Origin: a virus
Lineage: Duplodnaviria; Caudoviricetes
Virus record (IMG/VR): IMGVR_UViG_3300015050_000992
Coordinates: 1 to 45,246 of that record
Direction: 5' to 3' (one strand)
Length of the DNA stretch: 45,246 bases
Under the pieces are notes generated by a model. That model worked only from the letters and a program-made list of their open reading frames with translations. It was not told the DNA's origin and did not search any database. Both the position numbers and the translations under genes were made by a program. This document shows positions 22,325 to 38,088 of the stretch, piece by piece; the stretch's first letter is position 1; every line of letters starts with the position of its first letter.

Positions 22325-22668
22325 CTAGTTGACGCGGTCGATAAAATCGTCGGCGTTAAGCACTTGAACGCACGGTGTAAATTGCGCACTGTAGCAGTGG
22401 GCGTAGAAACCCGGACCAACAATATCGCCGACCGCCCCCAGTTGGACTGGGGCGACATCCTTGCGCGGTTTTGAGCGGGGATGCGGCTGAACACATCCGC
22501 CTGCAACGGGCGGATGGGAACGCGCTTGGCGGCGCGCTCCGAACTCGGCTTAGGCCGGGGGCGGGCGTGCTGTCCAAGGGGGAACCCCAAAAGCGTCCGG
22601 CCTGTCTTGTTGGCAGGTTTCTACCCCCCGGCTGCACCGGTGCCATGGTGTGAGCTGGTATTGACTAG
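22325..22668 (+). ncRNA. Candidate large structured ncRNA
   Basis: Long-range stems (GTAGAAACC/GGTTTCTAC, CCAACAA/TTGTTGG, TGTAGC/GCTGCA) enclose about six hairpins; mismatches are mostly G-U on the + strand. Confidence 0.6.
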
Positions 22669-22725: not shown

Positions 22726-22950
22726 GTGGAACCTACAACTGAAGAAGACGACAGGCGGGCGCTGTCGGAGATTATCTGTCGCCTGCCGCCTTGGGCGGTG
22801 ACCGAGTTGCTGACCGCCGCACGCGCAATTCCAGATCCTTTGCCTGTTCAAGCAGATAAGCCTGCCAATCAGGATACTCTTTCAGGCGATCATATATCGC
22901 CATCAGTTCATCGCCTTCCGGACCGAGGCCGGCGCCAGGGGCGAAATTAG
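22726..22950 (+). CDS. Putative SOS-induced antirepressor-like peptide, antisense to the cI 3' half
   Basis: GGGGGAG SD, GTG start, directly downstream of the LexA box. Confidence 0.45.
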   Translation: MEPTTEEDDRRALSEIICRLPPWAVTELLTAARAIPDPLPVQADKPANQDTLSGDHISPSVHRLPDRGRRQGRN

Positions 22951-23134
22951 GATCGATCTCCTGAATCGTTGCATTCAGTGCCCGGGCGATCTCTGGCAGT
23001 TTTTTCGTCGTGACGTTTTCCTCGCGCTCGAGCTGCGAAATGAGCTGCTGGCTAACACCAGCCTTCTTCGCGAGCCCCGTCTGTGACAGGCCCTCGCGCT
23101 CCCTAAGCCGCTTTAGATTCTCGGGTATTCCCAT
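22772..23134 (-). CDS. cI: CI-like repressor (XRE HTH, no S24 peptidase domain)
   Basis: LKRLR...GLSQ..LA..AGVSQQ.ISQLE; divergent from cro; 120 aa. Confidence 0.85.
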   Translation of the reverse strand: MGIPENLKRLREREGLSQTGLAKKAGVSQQLISQLEREENVTTKKLPEIARALNATIQEIDPNFAPGAGLGPEGDELMAIYDRLKEYPDWQAYLLEQAKDLELRVRRSATRSPPKAAGDR

Positions 23135-23143
23135 GCGGCGCAA

Positions 23144-23220
23144 TCTACCAGTTAGCTTGTAACCTGAAACACAAGTTTCCTAGTTGACGACCATGCGAGT
23201 TATCTACTAGATTGCTTGTA
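23144..23220. promoter_or_regulatory. OR: three operators and PR
   Basis: TCTACCAG-N4-CTTGTA (23144-61), an inverted copy (23170-87) and TCTACTAG-N4-CTTGTA (23203-20); TTGACG at 23184 and TAGATT at 23208. Confidence 0.85.
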
Positions 23221-23453
23221 TGGCTACGCTCAAAGACCACATCGAGAACGCTGTTAAGCACTACGGCTCGCAGGCCAAGCTTGCTGAGGCCCTTCGGTGT
23301 TCGCAGCAGCAGATTTCGTACCTCCTCAAGGCATCGAGTGTCAGCGCCGAGATGGCGAAGAAGCTCGACGAGGCTACGGGTGGCGCGGTGTCTCGCCATG
23401 ATCTTCGCCCGGATATCTACGGGCCGGCTCCTGCTCAGGGCAGGGCAGCATGA
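23220..23453 (+). CDS. cro: Cro-like regulator (YdaS family)
   Basis: GSQAKLAEAL.CSQQ.IS and T.G.VSR.DLRPD.Y motifs. Confidence 0.88.
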   Translation: MATLKDHIENAVKHYGSQAKLAEALRCSQQQISYLLKASSVSAEMAKKLDEATGGAVSRHDLRPDIYGPAPAQGRAA

Positions 23454-23557
23454 CCCAGCAAGCCATAATCCTCGGGCTTCTTTGGTCCGCAGTCGGTGCC
23501 CTTGGCGCTGGCATCCTCATCGCGGAAATCGCCGACCTGTTCAGGAAGGGGCGCTAG
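23450..23557 (+). CDS. 35-aa hydrophobic peptide
   Basis: Hand-translated MTQQAIILGLLWSAVGALGAGILIAEIADLFRKGR; fills the cro-to-endonuclease gap exactly. Confidence 0.5.
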   Translation: MTQQAIILGLLWSAVGALGAGILIAEIADLFRKGR

Positions 23558-24091
23558 ATGGCCCGCGTCAGGCGCATAGGTGCTGCACTGGTGCCGACCG
23601 ACGCTCAGCTCGCCAAGAGCGGTTGCAGCCTCCAAGAGTACCGCCGCATGCAAGACATCGGCGACGGCATGAGGTTGCTTGGCGCCACAAAACGTCAGAC
23701 GCCGCTCGGACGCTACACCTCTCAGCGCCGTGACGCTGGTAGGCGCGGCATAGAATGGAAAATCACCCTCATCGAGTGGTGGCACGTGTGGGTGTCGTCG
23801 GGACATTGGGCAGAACGCGGCCCCGGTCAGGGTTACGTGATGTGCCGATTTGGCGACACCGGGCCTTACGCGGCGAACAACGTCTACATCGCCACAAATC
23901 CTCAGAATGCTCGCGATGCGGCGAGAAAAGACGACCTGCCGATGGGCGTGTACCGGCAACACAACGGCTTCCGGGCCAAGCGCTCGCTTGGTGGGCGCTG
24001 CTACGAACTCGGGCTGTTCCAGACGATCAGCGAGGCCGATCGGGCCTATCAGGAGTTCCAGTCTCCGCCAGCTGCGTCGGGGGGCGTGTAG
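23558..24091 (+). CDS. His-Me-finger-type endonuclease with AP2-like C-terminus
   Basis: RGIEW.IT..EWW..W, YVMCR.GD.GPY...NV.I and LP.GV...LG.F.T..EA..AY motifs. Confidence 0.7.
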   Translation: MARVRRIGAALVPTDAQLAKSGCSLQEYRRMQDIGDGMRLLGATKRQTPLGRYTSQRRDAGRRGIEWKITLIEWWHVWVSSGHWAERGPGQGYVMCRFGDTGPYAANNVYIATNPQNARDAARKDDLPMGVYRQHNGFRAKRSLGGRCYELGLFQTISEADRAYQEFQSPPAASGGV

Positions 24092-24802
24092 ATGTCCGAC
24101 ACGAAGCTCAAGGCCTACATCGACCGCGTGCTGCGCAGCCGTGAGCGTGAGGACGCGGAGAAGGCCAACACCAAGGCGATCTACGCCGAACTCAATTCCG
24201 ACGGCTACGACAAGGCGATCGTCGGCAAGGTCGTGAACCATCTGCGCAAGGACCAGGACAAGGTCCGCGAGCAGTCCGACCTGTTTGACACGTACCTCAT
24301 CGCCTACCTCGGAGCCTCGCACGTACATGCACGTGCGAGGGACACCGAGAACGAAGATCACCCAGGAGGCGAAAATGCGAACAGCGTCGGGAAAGCCGAC
24401 GCATCGCATGCCTCCCTGCGCAGCGGTAGAGAAGCGGCATCTCGCCTGGCTCATAACCAGGAAATCGCGGGTTCGAGTCCCGCCCCTGCAACCACATCCA
24501 CAGTTCCCCAGCACAACGCTGAGGAAGCGGGCGAGGGCACTACCGCGGCGTCCTCGCTCGCCGATATTCCCGAACCGGAGACAGGGGCTTCCTCCTCCCC
24601 TTCTGTCTCCGAGGCTGGCGGCGAGAGCGCTATCCCTGCGGCTGCTCTCGCCGTTCCATCCGCTGATCGTTCCAAGCCGCACCCGTGGTGCAAAGACCCC
24701 GAAGATTGCGGCGTCGAGGCAAGCTGGGATCACATGTGTTTGAGCTGTCATCGCCGCATGGAGAAGGCGCTTACCGAGCGCCCTTCATCGGTGCTGCAAT
24801 GA
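24092..24802 (+). CDS. GapR/DUF2312-like DNA-binding domain, linker and C-terminal Cys4 finger
   Basis: LKAYIDRV.R....D.....K.IYAE....GYD......V...RKD......D..DTY; C-terminal C.DP.DC...C.SC. Confidence 0.75.
   Translation: MSDTKLKAYIDRVLRSREREDAEKANTKAIYAELNSDGYDKAIVGKVVNHLRKDQDKVREQSDLFDTYLIAYLGASHVHARARDTENEDHPGGENANSVGKADASHASLRSGREAASRLAHNQEIAGSSPAPATTSTVPQHNAEEAGEGTTAASSLADIPEPETGASSSPSVSEAGGESAIPAAALAVPSADRSKPHPWCKDPEDCGVEASWDHMCLSCHRRMEKALTERPSSVLQ
24419..24494 (+). tRNA. tRNA-Met(CAT), initiator-like, embedded in a CDS
   Basis: CGCAG(C)GG TA GAGA..TCTC G CCTGG CTCATAA CCAGG AAATC GCGGG TTCGAGT CCCGC CCCTGCA ACCA; C1:A72 mismatch, A11-U24 pair, encoded CCA. Confidence 0.85.
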
Positions 24803-25104
24803 TCCGTTCCACCAACAAGCATCAGATGAAAGCCGGTACGGCGCGGGGGCGCGCGCCTGGGGTCATGTACCGGCTTACACCTGCTGCTGACTATGCGCAG
24901 GACCGCGTTCATTCGTTCGCGGTTGGCTCCGTCCAGGATCTCCTCCCCCTGACGCAGCTCCGTAGACTTGGCCGAGGGCGCATTGCTCTCGGCTCTTTTA
25001 CCGGCTCGAGGGGCGGCGCCAACCGCACCCTCGCCAGTACCAACCATACCCTTCGCGATTGCGTCCGTAAGTGCTTCGCCGAGGGTTCTAAACGTCATTT
25101 CCAA
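24748..25104 (-). CDS. Possible antisense hypothetical gene
   Basis: GGAG SD before TTG/ATG; competes with a + strand ORF at 24799..25188. Confidence 0.35.
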   Translation of the reverse strand: MEMTFRTLGEALTDAIAKGMVGTGEGAVGAAPRAGKRAESNAPSAKSTELRQGEEILDGANRERMNAVLRIVSSRCKPVHDPRRAPPRRTGFHLMLVGGTDHCSTDEGRSVSAFSMRR

Positions 25105-25150
25105 GTCTCCGACTGCCTAGGACCCGAACCTAGGCAAGGAGACCTCGTAA

Positions 25151-25546
25151 ATGTCCAAATCATCGTTGGAGAAATCAGAAATGTCTGAGATCGCGTGGGC
25201 GTCGAATGCGCTTCAAGAACGCATCGCACCGGTCGGAAGTTCACAGTTTGTCGAAACGCGCATCCGCAAGGCCGCCACTGCCTTGGGGTGGAAATTCAGC
25301 CGCGCCAGGACGGTCTGGTACGGCGACGAGCGCGTCAGCATCAAGCCGCGGGAATTGCGGCGTATCGAGGAAGTTGCGGGGATCCACTATGGCCGAGAAG
25401 AAATCAGGGACGTCGACGCGCTCATCAGCAGCGCCGACGCTCTCCTTATGGGCGTCAATTCGGATTTCTACAGCGCGTTCGCTGCTGCGCTCCGCGCGGT
25501 GGCTGGCGCTGTGGATCGCTCCCGAGCTTCGAAACGAGACCGGTGA
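25151..25546 (+). CDS. Putative CII-like HTH regulator
   Basis: AA..LGW..SR....WY motif; AAGGAG SD; position in the early right operon. Confidence 0.55.
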   Translation: MSKSSLEKSEMSEIAWASNALQERIAPVGSSQFVETRIRKAATALGWKFSRARTVWYGDERVSIKPRELRRIEEVAGIHYGREEIRDVDALISSADALLMGVNSDFYSAFAAALRAVAGAVDRSRASKRDR

Positions 25547-26110: not shown

Positions 26111-26377
26111 ATGAACCAGATCCTCGCAACGCTCTTTCGTCCCAAGCCCTTCAGCTCCCGTGCGGTGATTGCCGGGCTTCGTGACCAGATCATTGAGATC
26201 GGAACGCATGTCCGGTTTCTCGAGGCGGATAAGCCCGTTCCTCAGCCCCGCGACGACGACGGCAGGTTCGTCAGCAAGCGCGAACTCATGCGCCAGCAGA
26301 TGGCCGATGCGTGTTCGCACCTCACCCCTGAACAGCGAGCAGCAGCCAAGGCTCGCGGGCTGGAGAGGAAAGCATGA
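26111..26377 (+). CDS. Hypothetical protein
   Basis: QPRD..GRF motif; ATGA overlap with the MTase. Confidence 0.6.
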   Translation: MNQILATLFRPKPFSSRAVIAGLRDQIIEIGTHVRFLEADKPVPQPRDDDGRFVSKRELMRQQMADACSHLTPEQRAAAKARGLERKA

Positions 26378-27249
26378 GCGGGAAACTGCGGGTGCTCGAC
26401 CTGTTCAGCGGCATTGGCGGCTTCAGCCTTGGGCTGGAGAGAACGGGCGGGTTTGAAACCGTGGCGTTCTGCGAACTCAAGCCACGGGCACGGGCGGTGC
26501 TGGCGAAGCATTGGCCGGACGTTCCGTGCTTCGAAGACGTTACCACATTGCGAGGCGCGGATGTCGGAACAGTTGATGTTATCTGCGGAGGATTTCCCTG
26601 TCAGGACATCTCCCTCGCCGGGTTGGGAGCGGGTTTGGACGGTGCCAGGTCCGGCCTCTGGTCCGAATACGCCCGCCTTATTGGCGAACTTCGACCCCGC
26701 TACGTCATCGTGGAGAACGTCGCAGCGCTCCTTAGTCGAGGGCTGGACCGTGTTCTCCGGGACTTGGCCGCGCTCGGGTATGATGCAGAGTGGCACTGTA
26801 TTCCAGCTTGCGCCGTTGGTGCCCCTCACCGACGCGACCGTCTCTGGATTGTGGCCTACGCCGGCCGCGATGGACACGGGGATCTCGACGCCCCTCGAGA
26901 AGATACAGGAGCGTCGGACGAGGATCAAAGCCAAGCGGATCAACGGCAACGGGTTCGGACTGAGCCTGGGCGAAGCGGTCCGCATGTGGCCGACGCCGAA
27001 CGCCGGGGATTGGAAGGCGGGGATGAGCAACGCGCCCGGCCGACAGCAATCATCCCTGCCGCGTACGGTCGGTATCGTGGAGGGAGTGACTTCGGGGAAG
27101 CGTGGAGGGCTGAACCCGACGTGGGTCGAGTGGCTCATGGGGTTCCCTCTGGAATGGACCGTCTTGAAGAACTGGGCAACGCCGTCGTCCCGCAAATCCC
27201 GGAAATCATCGGTCACGCCATCCTCGAAAGCATGAGGGCTGCAGCATGA
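26374..27249 (+). CDS. C5-cytosine DNA methyltransferase, alpha chain
   Basis: DLFSGIGG, GGFPCQD, ENV, H.RDR and LGNAVVPQ motifs; motif IX is absent from this frame. Confidence 0.95.
   Translation: MSGKLRVLDLFSGIGGFSLGLERTGGFETVAFCELKPRARAVLAKHWPDVPCFEDVTTLRGADVGTVDVICGGFPCQDISLAGLGAGLDGARSGLWSEYARLIGELRPRYVIVENVAALLSRGLDRVLRDLAALGYDAEWHCIPACAVGAPHRRDRLWIVAYAGRDGHGDLDAPREDTGASDEDQSQADQRQRVRTEPGRSGPHVADAERRGLEGGDEQRARPTAIIPAAYGRYRGGSDFGEAWRAEPDVGRVAHGVPSGMDRLEELGNAVVPQIPEIIGHAILESMRAAA
26561..27235 (+). CDS. Nested +1-frame MTase beta chain
   Basis: GAGG SD plus ATG at 26561; two WPTP repeats and a motif IX-like LNPTWVEWLMGFP..WT. Confidence 0.8.
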   Translation: MSEQLMLSAEDFPVRTSPSPGWERVWTVPGPASGPNTPALLANFDPATSSWRTSQRSLVEGWTVFSGTWPRSGMMQSGTVFQLAPLVPLTDATVSGLWPTPAAMDTGISTPLEKIQERRTRIKAKRINGNGFGLSLGEAVRMWPTPNAGDWKAGMSNAPGRQQSSLPRTVGIVEGVTSGKRGGLNPTWVEWLMGFPLEWTVLKNWATPSSRKSRKSSVTPSSKA

Positions 27250-28524: not shown

Positions 28525-29177
28525 TCGATCTAGCCCAAACCATTGCCAACATGGAAGCGCTCGGCATGACCGAAAGCGAGATCGTTCGCTCGCTGCGCTG
28601 CATCCAGAATGGCGTGGTTGCTCCGGTTCGATCGGCCGGCGCTGAGCGCCAGGCGCGCTACCGGCAGCGTCATGCGTCACAAACCGTAACAGGTGACGTA
28701 ACAGGTGACGCAAACGCCTTCCCCGATAAAGAAAATCCCCAGACCCCTAAAGAAATTACCCCAACCAAATCTAGCCTATCCCCCCCTAAAGGGTCCCCCC
28801 TTTCCCAAGCCGAACCCACCGAGTTCGAGGTTTGGTACGGCGGCTACCCCCACAAGATGCAGCGCGGCGCCGCAGAGCGAGCATTCAAGGCAGCTCGCAA
28901 GATCGCCAGCCTCGAGGTGCTGATCGCTGGGGTGGCCCGGTACGTCGCCACCAAGCCGGCCGATGTGGCGTGGCGCTACCCGTCAACGTGGCTGAACGGC
29001 AAGGGCTGGCTGGACCAGCCGGACGAAATCTACCCGCTAGCTCGCGGCTCACCGCCTCAACGCAGCAATCCGCTTTCGGACGCATTCGGAAGTTTCGACC
29101 AGGGGCCCAGATATGACGATCTCGATACCGCATCAGCTCAAGGTACTGTTCTCTACCTTCCCGCAGCAGCCCGGTGA
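28521..29177 (+). CDS. Putative replication initiator
   Basis: AERQARYR, FE.WY..YP.K...A...F and P.TWLN...W.D motifs; VTGDVTGD repeat and C/A-rich tract in the linker. Confidence 0.7.
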   Translation: MIDLAQTIANMEALGMTESEIVRSLRCIQNGVVAPVRSAGAERQARYRQRHASQTVTGDVTGDANAFPDKENPQTPKEITPTKSSLSPPKGSPLSQAEPTEFEVWYGGYPHKMQRGAAERAFKAARKIASLEVLIAGVARYVATKPADVAWRYPSTWLNGKGWLDQPDEIYPLARGSPPQRSNPLSDAFGSFDQGPRYDDLDTASAQGTVLYLPAAAR

Positions 29178-31838: not shown

Positions 31839-32285
31839 ATGGCCTACAGCCCAGAAGAAGCCCAATCGATCAAGGATCGCGTCTGTCTCGAGATCACAGA
31901 GGGCAAGAGCCTTCGGTCGATATGCGAAGCTGATGATATGCCAGCCGCCGAAACAATCCGGGTCTGGCTGATTGAGGATGGCGAGTTCTCTGCGCAGTAC
32001 ACGCGTGCGCGGGAAGAGCAGGCTGACTTCTACGCCGACGAGATCATCGACATTGCGGACACGGCTAAGGACGCGAACCTGGCGAGGCTGCAGATTGATG
32101 CCCGCAAGTGGAAAGCCTCCAAGCTGCAGCCGAAGAAGTACGGCGACAAGATCGACCTCAACCACTCTGGCGCAATCGAGCACCTGACGGATGAACAGCT
32201 TGAATCCAAGCTCGCTATCCTACTCGGAAAAGCGGGAGTTGGCCTCCTTGCTGGAGGAAGTGGAACGCCGGAAGACGAGGCGTAA
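31839..32285 (+). CDS. terS: Terminase small subunit
   Basis: G.SLRSIC...MP...T...W, F..QY.RARE.QAD, IDARKW.ASKL.PKKYG (Sf6 gp1-like). Confidence 0.92.
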   Translation: MAYSPEEAQSIKDRVCLEITEGKSLRSICEADDMPAAETIRVWLIEDGEFSAQYTRAREEQADFYADEIIDIADTAKDANLARLQIDARKWKASKLQPKKYGDKIDLNHSGAIEHLTDEQLESKLAILLGKAGVGLLAGGSGTPEDEA

Positions 32286-32940
32286 GCTCTTCGACCTCTA
32301 CCCGGCAACAGGTCCGCTGCGGCGCGAACTCTATCGCAAGCACATGGAGTATTTCAGGCTCGGTGCGGAGCTTGGCGTCAACGAGCGGGCCATGATGGCT
32401 GCTAACCGTGTGGGCAAGACCTACGGCGGTGGTGGCTATGAAACCGCGCTGCACCTCACTGGACTTTACCCGGATTGGTGGGAAGGGCGGCGCTTCAACC
32501 ATCCGGTGGATTGGTGGGCTGCCGGCGATACCGCCGAGACAACGCGCGACATCATCCAGTTGTGTCTGTTGGGCCCAGTAGAGGATATGGGCACGGGCCT
32601 CATTCCAGGCGACTGCATCATCGGTGAGCCGAGCAGGCGCCGCGGTGTGGCTGACTCGGTCGACACCGTCGCGGTTCGGCACAAGAGCGGCGGCGTCAGT
32701 TCGCTTGGCCTCAAGTCCTACGATCAGGGGCGCAAGAAGTTTCAGGGCACGGCCAAGCATGGTGTGTGGCTCGATGAAGAGCCGCCGCAGGATGTCTACA
32801 CCGAATGTCTGCTGCGCTTGATGACGACGCAGGGCCTCATGATGCTCACGTTCACCCCGTTGTCCGGCATCTCGGAAGTTGTCCTTCAGTACATGAGCGA
32901 GGATCAGCTTGCGGCACTTAGTGACGGCAACGTGGGATGA
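32191..32940 (+). CDS. terL: Terminase large subunit, N-terminal ATPase part
   Basis: Walker A AANRVGKT, Walker B VWLDEE, coupling motif TFTP. Confidence 0.93.
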   Translation: MNSLNPSSLSYSEKRELASLLEEVERRKTRRKLFDLYPATGPLRRELYRKHMEYFRLGAELGVNERAMMAANRVGKTYGGGGYETALHLTGLYPDWWEGRRFNHPVDWWAAGDTAETTRDIIQLCLLGPVEDMGTGLIPGDCIIGEPSRRRGVADSVDTVAVRHKSGGVSSLGLKSYDQGRKKFQGTAKHGVWLDEEPPQDVYTECLLRLMTTQGLMMLTFTPLSGISEVVLQYMSEDQLAALSDGNVG

Positions 32941-33652
32941 TGTCCCGCACCTCAGCGCAGATCAGAAGCAACAGCTTTGGGACGCACTGCCTCCGCACGA
33001 GAAGGAAGCGCGCTCAAAGGGCATACCGGGGCTAGGCGAGGGCGCCATCTTCCCAGTCTCCGATGAGAGTATCCTCGTAGACCCGTTCGAAATACCGAAG
33101 CACTGGCGCCACATCGGTGGCCTCGACTTTGGCTACGACCATCCATTCGGTGCGGTGAAACTGGCGCACGACCTCGACACCGACAGCGTCTACGTGACGG
33201 CGGAGTATCGGGAGCGCAAGGCAACGCCGGTCATTCATGCCGCTGCGTTGCGACCGTGGGGCAGTTGGTTGCCGTGGGCATGGCCGCACGATGGTCTGCA
33301 ACACGACAAGGGCTCGGGCGAGCAACTGGCGCAGCAGTACCGCGACCAGAACCTCGACCTGCTGGCAGAGCGCGCCACGTTCGATGACGAGACGAACGGC
33401 GTTGAGGCCGGCCTGTCCGACATGCTGGTTCGAATGCAGACCAACCGGTGGAAGGTCTTCAGGACCTGCCCGCTGTGGATGGAAGAAAAGCGGCTCTATC
33501 ACCGCAAGAAGAATGATAAGGGCAAGATCGCCATCGTGGCTCTTCGCGACGATCTCATCAGCGCCTCTCGCTACGCACTGATGATGATCCGGCACGCGGA
33601 AATGAACCAGCGAGCGCTCATGCCTCAGGTTGAAACGGATTGGGTGGCATGA
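32909..33652 (+). CDS. terL: Terminase large subunit, lid and nuclease part (+1 frame)
   Basis: WDDVPHL, AR..GIP..G.G, GLDFG..HP, WPHDG and DDL.SA.RYA motifs. Confidence 0.92.
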   Translation: MRHLVTATWDDVPHLSADQKQQLWDALPPHEKEARSKGIPGLGEGAIFPVSDESILVDPFEIPKHWRHIGGLDFGYDHPFGAVKLAHDLDTDSVYVTAEYRERKATPVIHAAALRPWGSWLPWAWPHDGLQHDKGSGEQLAQQYRDQNLDLLAERATFDDETNGVEAGLSDMLVRMQTNRWKVFRTCPLWMEEKRLYHRKKNDKGKIAIVALRDDLISASRYALMMIRHAEMNQRALMPQVETDWVA

Positions 33653-36759: not shown

Positions 36760-37019
36760 GCGCTCTCGCTGATCATTACGCCAAAGAAGCCGAGCGACTG
36801 CTCAATGACGACGTGCTGGCTGAGGCATTCACCGCGGTTCGCATGAACGCGCTCGTCGCGCTGTCAACTGTCGACGCTGACAACAAGACCGAAATTCTGA
36901 GGCTCCAGGCCATTGCCGGCATCCTCCCCGACGTTGTGGACGCGCTGAAATCACACATCATCGCCGCTGGCGGGATGAGTGGTGGCGTCGATCCCAACCA
37001 GCCGACCAGCGAAAGCTGA
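36756..37019 (+). CDS. Small head-module protein
   Basis: EAERLL.D..L.EAF pattern; between portal and scaffold. Confidence 0.65.
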   Translation: MSALADHYAKEAERLLNDDVLAEAFTAVRMNALVALSTVDADNKTEILRLQAIAGILPDVVDALKSHIIAAGGMSGGVDPNQPTSES

Positions 37020-37053
37020 CCCCGGCTTTACTGCCACCAAAGGACCCCTACTC

Positions 37054-38088
37054 ATGCCAATCGACAATCTCCCTGGCGTTGAGCCGGGGCCTGTTGACAC
37101 GACTCCTCCGACCGAAGCTTCTTTGATCGAGGACATCTCCAATCTTCTCGATGACGACCCGGAAACGGACCCCGCCGAAGAGAAAGAGGACCAAGCGACA
37201 GCCGATGCAGACGATGGCGATGAGCCTGATGTCGACGTGTCGGAAGACGTTGAGGACGAGGCTGAAGCCGACGATCCTGACGGCTCACAGGAACCGGAAA
37301 TCAAGGGCGGCCGCTTTGCACCTGACAGTGCGAAGGTCACCCTCGAGGACGGCTCGGTGATCACCGTTGCGGACCTGAAGCGCAACAACCTGTTCCAGCG
37401 CGATTACACCAAGAAGACGACCGAGTTGGCTGCCGAACGCGAGCAGATCACAACCCGGAAGTCGGAGGTGGATCAGCAGGCTCAATCACTGACGCAGCTT
37501 GCGGAACGACTGACTGTCTTTAGCCAGAAATACCTGCCTCAACCCCCGGAACCGTTCACCGGCACGCCCGACACCGACCCGCTCGGCTACATGACCTACA
37601 TGCAGCGACGGGAGCAGTACGAGCAGGCCGTCAGCGAGTTCAACGGCATCCAGCAGGGAACCTCGCAACTCACCGAAGAGCAGCAACGTGCCAAAGACGA
37701 CCAGGCCAAGTTGGCGTGGGCGGCTGAGGCGGCGGCTCTGGCGGCGAGCGACAAGTTCTTTGCCGACCCCGTCAAGGTCGAAGGCTTCTTCAAGGAAGCT
37801 GTCGAACTGGGTGGCAAGGCCTGGGGCCTCACTCGCGATGACATCGCGAACTTGAGGTCCGGCAAGGCCTTCCGGGTCCTTCGCTCGGCTGTTCTCTACG
37901 AACGCGCCAAAGCCAAGGCTCAGGGGGTCAAAGAGCAGGTCAAGGCAAAGCCAGCAGTGCCAATCGGCGGCCGCAGGGCCGATCCGAATGCACGGGTCTC
38001 CGCACAAAAGCAGGCGCGGTCTGAGCGGCTTCGCGCGACCGGCAGTTTCGAAGACGGAATTGCCGCGATCGAGGACCTCATTCCCTAA
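37054..38088 (+). CDS. Capsid scaffolding protein
   Basis: Acidic N-terminus, DYT.KT.ELA, DP.GY, coiled coil; precedes the MCP. Confidence 0.85.
   Translation: MPIDNLPGVEPGPVDTTPPTEASLIEDISNLLDDDPETDPAEEKEDQATADADDGDEPDVDVSEDVEDEAEADDPDGSQEPEIKGGRFAPDSAKVTLEDGSVITVADLKRNNLFQRDYTKKTTELAAEREQITTRKSEVDQQAQSLTQLAERLTVFSQKYLPQPPEPFTGTPDTDPLGYMTYMQRREQYEQAVSEFNGIQQGTSQLTEEQQRAKDDQAKLAWAAEAAALAASDKFFADPVKVEGFFKEAVELGGKAWGLTRDDIANLRSGKAFRVLRSAVLYERAKAKAQGVKEQVKAKPAVPIGGRRADPNARVSAQKQARSERLRATGSFEDGIAAIEDLIP

Follow-up and report, generated by a model that had tools for sequence, protein, structure and literature searches.

A tRNA-Met gene nested in frame in the linker of a GapR-like early phage gene, and a likely swappable tRNA slot among its homologues

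We analysed a window of 45,246 bases that is a whole virus record, with integrase, terminase, portal and capsid genes. An early open reading frame (ORF) of this phage encodes a GapR-like domain, a long linker and a Cys4 tail, and a complete tRNA-Met(CAU) gene is nested, sense and in frame, within the linker. Among homologues, nested tRNAs of three isotypes are found in the same orientation, their stem pairs are conserved, and they are gained or lost in frame. Judged by sequence evidence, the dual-coded locus appears to be real, and the linker of this gene family is likely a swappable tRNA slot, which is a new result here.

The early gene and its nested tRNA

The window phage is temperate, and its best capsid match is Rhizobium phage RHph_N3_2 (65%). 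Because Devosia is named as a source of homologues of the gene family, we infer a Rhizobiales host. The rightward early block runs in the order cI, cro, an HNH-like gene and then 24092-24802; the tRNA-bearing ORF is an early gene, the second 3' of cro, and lies 11 kb away from the integrase. The candidate promoter is the sole sigma-70-like match within 22900-25300, and no intrinsic terminators were found on the + strand of the linker. The features of the locus are as follows; the hairpin z scores are against dinucleotide shuffles, for stretches picked after the fact.

22772-23143, - strand: cI-like HTH repressor (PF01381, E 7e-12)
23184-23213, + strand: candidate early rightward promoter, a weak sigma-70-like match (1 found, 0.6 expected)
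23220-23453, + strand: Cro-like HTH gene (PF15943, E 5e-17; PF14549, E 5e-4)
23558-24091, + strand: HNH-like gene between cro and the tRNA-bearing ORF (PHROG 374/953, E about 2-4e-5)
24092-24802, + strand: tRNA-bearing ORF, 236 aa, with GapR domain, linker and Cys4 tail
24101-24304, + strand: GapR-like domain, aa 4-71 (PF10073, 42.3 bits, cut-off 22.6)
24320-24670, + strand: linker, aa 77-193, predicted disordered (pLDDT <50 for 77-97 and 101-193), the RNA cassette region
24365-24415, + strand: hairpin 1 (-31.4 kcal/mol, z -6.6), with a Shine-Dalgarno and AUG in its 5' arm
24365-24377, + strand: GGAGG-N5-ATG in the +1 frame, here opening a 122-codon frame
24419-24494, + strand: tRNA-Met(CAU), initiator-derived, with CCA and a bulged acceptor C (ARAGORN and Rfam)
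24504-24526, + strand: hairpin 2, small (-9.3 kcal/mol, z -4.0)
24527-24561, + strand: hairpin 3 (-24.1 kcal/mol, z -4.3)
24576-24611, + strand: hairpin 4 (z -2.9)
24591-24599, + strand: CCUCCUCCC, the anti-Shine-Dalgarno (cuckoo) motif, in hairpin 4, partly in the loop
24617-24655, + strand: hairpin 5, directly 5' of the Cys4 tail (-25.5 kcal/mol, z -3.9)
24689-24748, + strand: Cys4 motif, C200-C206-C216-C219
24799-24802, + strand: stop/start overlap ATGA with the next open frame (129 aa, no Pfam match)

Elsewhere in the window, the terminase large subunit (32191-33652) is covered by two overlapping ORFs in different frames, each matching terminase PHROGs, which reflects a split gene, a frameshift or an assembly error. 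The C5 methylase gene has long overlapping + strand frames at 26374-27249 (291 aa) and 26414-27235 (273 aa), and the Pfam match of the former is limited to its first 163 aa.

A GapR/DUF2312-like N-terminus and a Cys4 C-terminus had been proposed for this ORF, and both are supported, the first by a PF10073 score above the cut-off and the second by four cysteines that are nearly invariant across 16 aligned proteins. The N-terminal domain also matches PDB UPF0335/GapR chains (E 3-9e-5) and has the expected three predicted helices (2-36, 41-53 and 55-74). AlphaFold modelled residues 2-74 confidently as three helices and the linker (77-193) with low confidence; Foldseek with the whole predicted model returned no match at E≤0.001. 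GapR is an oligomer that binds overtwisted DNA, and the product of this ORF is likely a GapR-type DNA-binding protein. It shares the three-helix domain with GapR, but in this family a long, variable linker follows it and the protein ends in a Cys4 or another C-terminal domain; DNA binding is predicted. The Cys4 motif probably binds zinc.

ARAGORN, run over the 45 kb window, found a single tRNA, the tRNA-Met(CAT) at 24419-24494, and Rfam RF00005 scored it at 54.1 bits against a cut-off of 29, which bears out the full cloverleaf with CCA that had been read from the letters. The finer marks described with it (C1:A72, A11-U24, U29-A41, an extra acceptor-stem C and the CCA end) are all present in the sequence. 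A 1:72 mismatch is given as a mark of initiator tRNA in the part of the source available to us (PMC2528185), and the window tRNA has one (C1:A72) together with the CAU anticodon and CCA end. Instead of three G-C pairs at 29-31/39-41 it has U29-A41 plus two G-C pairs; the host fMet genes examined likewise have two, with A29-U41. A11-U24, G2-C71 and C3-G70, which are initiator tRNA determinants, are all present. Columns identical to host fMet number 57 of 78, compared with 48 of 79 and 41 of 78 for the other CAU tRNAs, and the window tRNA derives from the initiator. Its acceptor stem is not a regular 7-bp helix, since one C is bulged. Of 95 distinct phage tRNA-Met sequences (loci L004-L117 and L165-L189), 23 have a one-base bulge in this stem; the bulge is a phage trait. 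The bulged C and the lost 29-41 G-C pair may impair tRNA function. In the same set of 95, the D loop is short (7 nt) in 6 of 6 in-ORF copies and 21 of 89 others. One locus (L171) carries a tRNA-Met without the 3' acceptor strand, fused to unrelated coding sequence.

The open frame and its tRNAs among homologues

The frame across this one linker was open by chance in shuffles with p=0.055, and the case for the ORF therefore rests on its homologues. A single-protein viral scan found no relative. Fifteen relatives of 196-377 aa were found, 482 proteins match at E≤0.001, and the Cys4 motif is present in 89 of 139 newly found proteins, conserved and in frame across linkers of widely differing length. 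A stop/start overlap marks the ORF end in 28 of 33 long homologues. Ungapped linker matches were in frame in 2743 of 2743 cases among 102 ORFs and in 94 of 94 cases in 45 disjoint pairs; we used ungapped matches because in gapped blastn alignments the gap lengths modulo 3 were too noisy to be informative, even within the GapR domain. Synonymous and nonsynonymous changes in the 45 pairs numbered 337/478 in the linker, 200/54 in the N-terminal part and 214/97 in the C-terminal part. These two results together indicate that the frame is kept while the linker peptide is weakly constrained.

The alignment proposed with the original prediction thus gives a frame that stays open through the tRNA. Homologues that stop right after the GapR domain, which had been named as evidence against the reading, are not the general case; short forms exist, 9 of 40 viral homologues being about 90-100 aa long. 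Dual coding of protein and tRNA gains support from the open frame, from the homologues that continue past GapR and from compensatory changes in tRNA pairs. Some family members have other architectures: the GapR domain is fused to a C5 methylase piece or a T5orf172/MUG113-type domain in P0059, P0036, L132 and L157 (the assignment of L132 and L157 being our own reading), and in many homologues the C-terminus is a second domain that has no Pfam match and that we take to be ParB-like.

Of the 132 distinct family ORFs for which DNA was available, ARAGORN identified a linker tRNA in 7, always in sense orientation; a fairer count is 5 of 130, which leaves out the window, as the query, and L186, whose tRNA led to its discovery. 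Five are tRNA-Met (the window, L133, L149, L186 and L316), one is tRNA-Gln(UUG) (L284, which came from a query bearing the Gln peptide) and one is tRNA-Arg(UCU) (L303), so that the Gln and Arg isotypes are represented by one DNA locus each. The remaining 125 ORFs carry no tRNA. No antisense tRNA was found in the 132 ORFs at the default threshold, and relaxed matches (antisense Leu/Gln/Trp; odd Ala/Phe/Trp) were treated as noise. One of seven metagenome matches (L168) was the window's own record and was dropped.

Three of these loci (L284, L303 and L316) are the tRNA bearers among 18 distinct ORFs obtained from 243 genomes of one Rhizobiales family. Their tRNAs score 57.5, 60.9 and 49.5 bits with Rfam, respectively, and all end in CCA. 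The ORF frame is the only stop-free frame in L284 and L303. Compared with its sister L310, L303 carries its tRNA-Arg as a 72-nt in-frame indel, and L311 has a hairpin in place of the tRNA-Gln of L284, with gaps of 18 and 9. A degenerate pattern for the Gln peptide matched 0 viral loci, the Gln DNA having come from the genomes. P0001 had one match at E≤1e-14 in the 243 genomes, and hence no close relative with DNA.

Further copies are represented by protein-only evidence. The Met peptide occurs in P0011, P0015, P0016, P0018 and P0031 (of 88 proteins) and in P0091, P0133 and P0205 (of 139 proteins). A peptide in five proteins resembled a translated second tRNA; the Gln peptide occurs in P0048, P0055, P0060, P0069 and P0070. 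P0200, with six repeats of the tRNA peptide, is likely a translated tRNA array and was excluded from the counts. Rfam searches of 40 further family loci returned the L133 tRNA alone, and those of 16 loci at E≤0.05 returned DUF3800-VIII alone. The latter RNA lies in sense within the linker of one locus (L313:1916-1982, 55.1 bits), and P0070 has a similar peptide.

In the nine in-ORF Met copies compared, pairing is complete in the D, anticodon and T stems (126 of 126 cells), compensatory change is seen in 6 of 14 pairs and CCA is always present; L149 was left out of this count as decayed, with the tail ACCC, a broken D arm and no Rfam match. P0067 also looks decayed, and these two cases indicate that some in-ORF copies are not maintained. 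In a quick, poorly resolved tree, tRNA-less sisters join P0001 (P0004, support 98) and L303 (P0065, support 99). A Met tRNA that arose once is compatible with this tree.

The same tRNA type is found in or beside other phage genes. Five unrelated post-cro ORFs read through it (L001, L041, L050, L054 and L068), among them gp13 of Mesorhizobium phage vB_MseS-P1, and all do so in the same frame; this is weak evidence, since stops usually close the other frames of these tRNAs. Three of them (L041, L054 and L068) have Cro-like or DNA-binding N-termini, the Cro label of L041 being our own reading. In four of the five, the ORF end coincides with the next ATG or lies no more than two bases from it. In phage RR1-A the tRNA is intergenic, directly 3' of the gene in the cro position, and is followed by hairpins. 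According to the part of the report available, temperate rhizobial phages of the phiLM21-like prophage group carry tRNA-Met/fMet (PMC12429752). Like ours, these phages and RR1-A are temperate Rhizobiales phages with one tRNA(CAU) each, but that part counts the genes without mention of nesting, and the RR1-A copy is intergenic.

The likely swappable phage slot is a variant of a nested-tRNA kind with one published bacterial precedent, selC (tRNA-Sec) nested in selB of Alphaproteobacteria, for which an either-or processing model was put forward as a prediction (Mukai, 2021; PMC8124441, seen in part). As far as that text goes, both systems have a whole tRNA, sense and in frame within an ORF whose stop overlaps the next start; in both the tRNA is optional and leaves remnants, and the either-or model rests on prediction. 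There, however, a host gene carries one fixed isotype, tied to the function of the protein, in a C-terminal extension. Here a phage gene carries three interchangeable isotypes and other RNA modules in an internal linker between two domains, with no known functional link between tRNA and protein. Our literature search, which itself did not match Mukai (2021), returned no description of a tRNA nested within a phage ORF, this one or any other.

Hairpins and the out-of-frame start in the linker

The five hairpins around the tRNA fold as had been described (z -6.6, -4.0, -4.3, -2.9 and -3.9). In a fairer control, the trailer tile 24498-24657 ranks 2nd of 282 genome tiles by folding (z -4.7). Other strongly folding tiles lie at 28658-28817, 36978-37137, 22418-22577 and 24978-25137 (z -4.9 to -3.6). 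Family-wide hairpin enrichment was rejected, as linkers were no richer than other phage DNA by crude counts (8.9 per kb against 7.2 and 8.2 elsewhere). Against synonymous shuffles, the median folding z is -1.2 in linkers and -0.7 in the domain. No match to the window hairpins was found by blastn among the fetched loci. Hairpin 1 ends 3 nt 5' of the tRNA, and the two are joined in contigs from 4 of 8 public runs, of which two diverge right 3' of the tRNA; no joint across the tRNA was seen in public-run DNA contigs. Eight loci (L304, L305, L307, L309, L311, L314, L315 and L317) share a conserved bulged hairpin with GGTAAG at its start and apparent covariation, located directly 5' of the C-terminal domain and without an Rfam match.

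The trailer was also considered as a member of the cuckoo/ar14 sRNAs. With that group, as described in the part of PMC4615179 available, it shares adjacent GC-rich hairpins and one exact CCUCCUCCC. However, the motif is in one of four trailer hairpins rather than in every loop, the hairpins are inside an ORF, and the ar14 match (Rfam RF02344) at hairpin 4 is far under the cut-off (22.7 against 58.8 bits). Membership was rejected on the motif count and the Rfam score. The motif occurs in 3 of 114 family ORFs. C-rich loops are found in 6 of 31 hairpins near post-cro tRNAs and 1 of 105 far away, and in 7 of 84 and 2 of 183 in a second count, for 20 hand-picked post-cro tRNAs. The P4 CI and P1 C4 immunity RNAs are antisense RNAs cut by RNase P from an early phage transcript, and P4 CI lies within an ORF; these are not tRNAs, and the window locus has no Rfam match to them.

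In most homologues, GGAGG-N5-ATG in the +1 frame is followed directly by a stop. The motif is present in 23 of 53 long ORFs that had been identified independently of it, and in 17 of the 53 a stop codon follows the AUG immediately. Inside ORFs (34,488 nt) we counted 15 cases of Shine-Dalgarno-AUG-stop, compared with 2 outside them (440,668 nt). When the DNA motif was the sole search criterion, 87 loci were obtained, 80 of them distinct; 76 of the 80 are preceded, in the same frame, by 100 or more open codons, 52 match GapR and 72 show a stop/start overlap, and none has a tRNA within 2 kb. No Shine-Dalgarno-AUG-stop is present within the window, where the out-of-frame AUG has no stop after it. 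The +1 frame from the hairpin-1 AUG (24375-24743, 122 codons) also traverses the tRNA, has no Pfam match and is not conserved in L186. That the window AUG is unusually buried is weakly supported, its opening energy being somewhat raised (12.9 kcal/mol; median 8.15, maximum 15.5). In E. coli, an out-of-frame Start-Stop damps the main ORF by about 16%, and by more with the stop removed, according to the portion available of Meydan et al. (bioRxiv 10.1101/520783). The phage motif has the same elements (Shine-Dalgarno, AUG and stop, out of frame inside an ORF), but is conserved family-wide with a fixed 5-nt spacer and frame; the window copy differs further in having no stop and lying within a hairpin. 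By analogy, the start-stop module likely damps the main frame.

Explanations for the nested tRNA

We consider it reasonably probable that the linker is an exchangeable cargo slot, and that the tRNA is likely cut by host enzymes from untranslated transcripts to replenish the tRNA pool in lytic growth. The linker would tolerate any stop-free insert, and RNA modules would be moved between phages by recombination. Inserts would be kept only in a stop-free frame because, as we infer, the C-terminal domain and the stop/start coupling must survive. The tRNA would be transcribed from the cro promoter and matured by RNase P and 3' nucleases from a share of the transcripts; cut transcripts could not give the full protein, so that each would yield either protein or tRNA, as known tRNA processing implies. 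The +1 Shine-Dalgarno-AUG(-stop) would be a second module of the slot that likely throttles main-frame ribosomes. The phage would thereby be insured against defences by which the host cleaves tRNAs, or against a low supply of the tRNA concerned.

The suggestion that the tRNA replaces one attacked by anticodon nucleases fares differently by isotype. The nuclease-evasion hypothesis predicts that phage anticodon loops differ from those of the host, and phages of a VapC-LT2 host generally avoid tRNA-fMet (PMC10264068, in the part available). The Gln loop does differ from the same-genome host isoacceptor, at 32/37/38, as does the Arg loop at 32/38. The Met loop, however, is identical to the host fMet loop, and nuclease escape is therefore not evident for the window copy. 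A bolder reading, which we regard as possible but doubtful, is that the linker is a dedicated, recombining payload bay for RNA in a widespread early gene of temperate Rhizobiales phages: phages would swap in whichever tRNA (fMet, Gln or Arg) a defence destroys, hidden in frame, with the start-stop as a turnstile that splits transcripts between protein and RNA.

The original prediction also offered a processing switch. In this model the tRNA serves mainly as a target of RNase P, whose cutting would stop synthesis of the full protein and uncouple the downstream early genes; ribosome loading at the Shine-Dalgarno of hairpin 1 could then set the cutting frequency. The placement of hairpin 1, with its Shine-Dalgarno-AUG, 3 nt from the tRNA fits this model, and so do the overlap of the ORF end with the next start and the recurrence of the hairpin 1-tRNA pair, seen in contigs from 4 of the 8 runs and at the peptide level in P0011 and P0016. 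Any isotype would serve as a cut site, and the same model has been proposed for selB/selC, as far as the available part of that report goes (Mukai, 2021; PMC8124441). Most homologues, including the closest (sister P0004), are without a tRNA, however, and the isotype varies, so a cargo fits better than an obligatory switch. Near-identical sisters are among the 125 of 132 ORFs that lack a tRNA, and no tRNA lies within 2 kb of any of the 80 start-stop loci. A20 is a tRNA-Arg determinant; the anticodons, the CCA ends and the A20 of the tRNA-Arg are kept, though needless for a mere cut site. We thus judge the switch improbable as the main explanation; such a role is possible but cannot be general.

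The tRNAs might instead be silent passengers, post-cro cassettes swept into a tolerant linker by recombination or a lost stop, rarely matured under ribosomes and now decaying. The decayed copies (L149 and P0067), the patchy presence of the tRNA, the weak amino-acid constraint in the linker and the intergenic tRNAs of the same type in other phages are as this would predict. We find it unlikely given the perfect pairing with compensatory change in nine in-ORF copies, although part of this change may predate entry into the ORF, and the intact Gln and Arg genes with CCA. That the key product is a cuckoo/ar14-like anti-Shine-Dalgarno sRNA freed from the tRNA 3' trailer seems very improbable: the exact CCUCCUCCC in hairpin 4, the weak ar14 match and the C-rich loops near post-cro tRNAs would agree with it, but the motif is partly paired, confined to one of four trailer hairpins and present in 3 of 114 family ORFs, and the match reaches 22.7 bits against 58.8. 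It is similarly hard to believe that the frame past GapR is untranslated, with GapR and the RNA cassette as separate units and the frame open by chance. The p=0.055 for this linker and the 9 of 40 viral homologues ending near 90-100 aa leave room for this, but the Cys4 motif in frame across differing linkers, the C-terminal synonymous excess, the 100% in-frame linker matches, and the open codons (76 of 80) and stop/start overlaps (72 of 80) at the motif loci all speak against it.

If the nested tRNAs are matured, phage tRNA counts would be too low wherever overlaps with coding sequences get filtered out, and the RNA may be as strong a reason as the peptide for disordered linkers to be retained. 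The sister prophage genes, which differ in carrying a Met, Gln or Arg tRNA or none, can serve as a natural allelic series for asking why phages carry tRNAs and whether a single bacterial mRNA can be the source of protein and tRNA alike.
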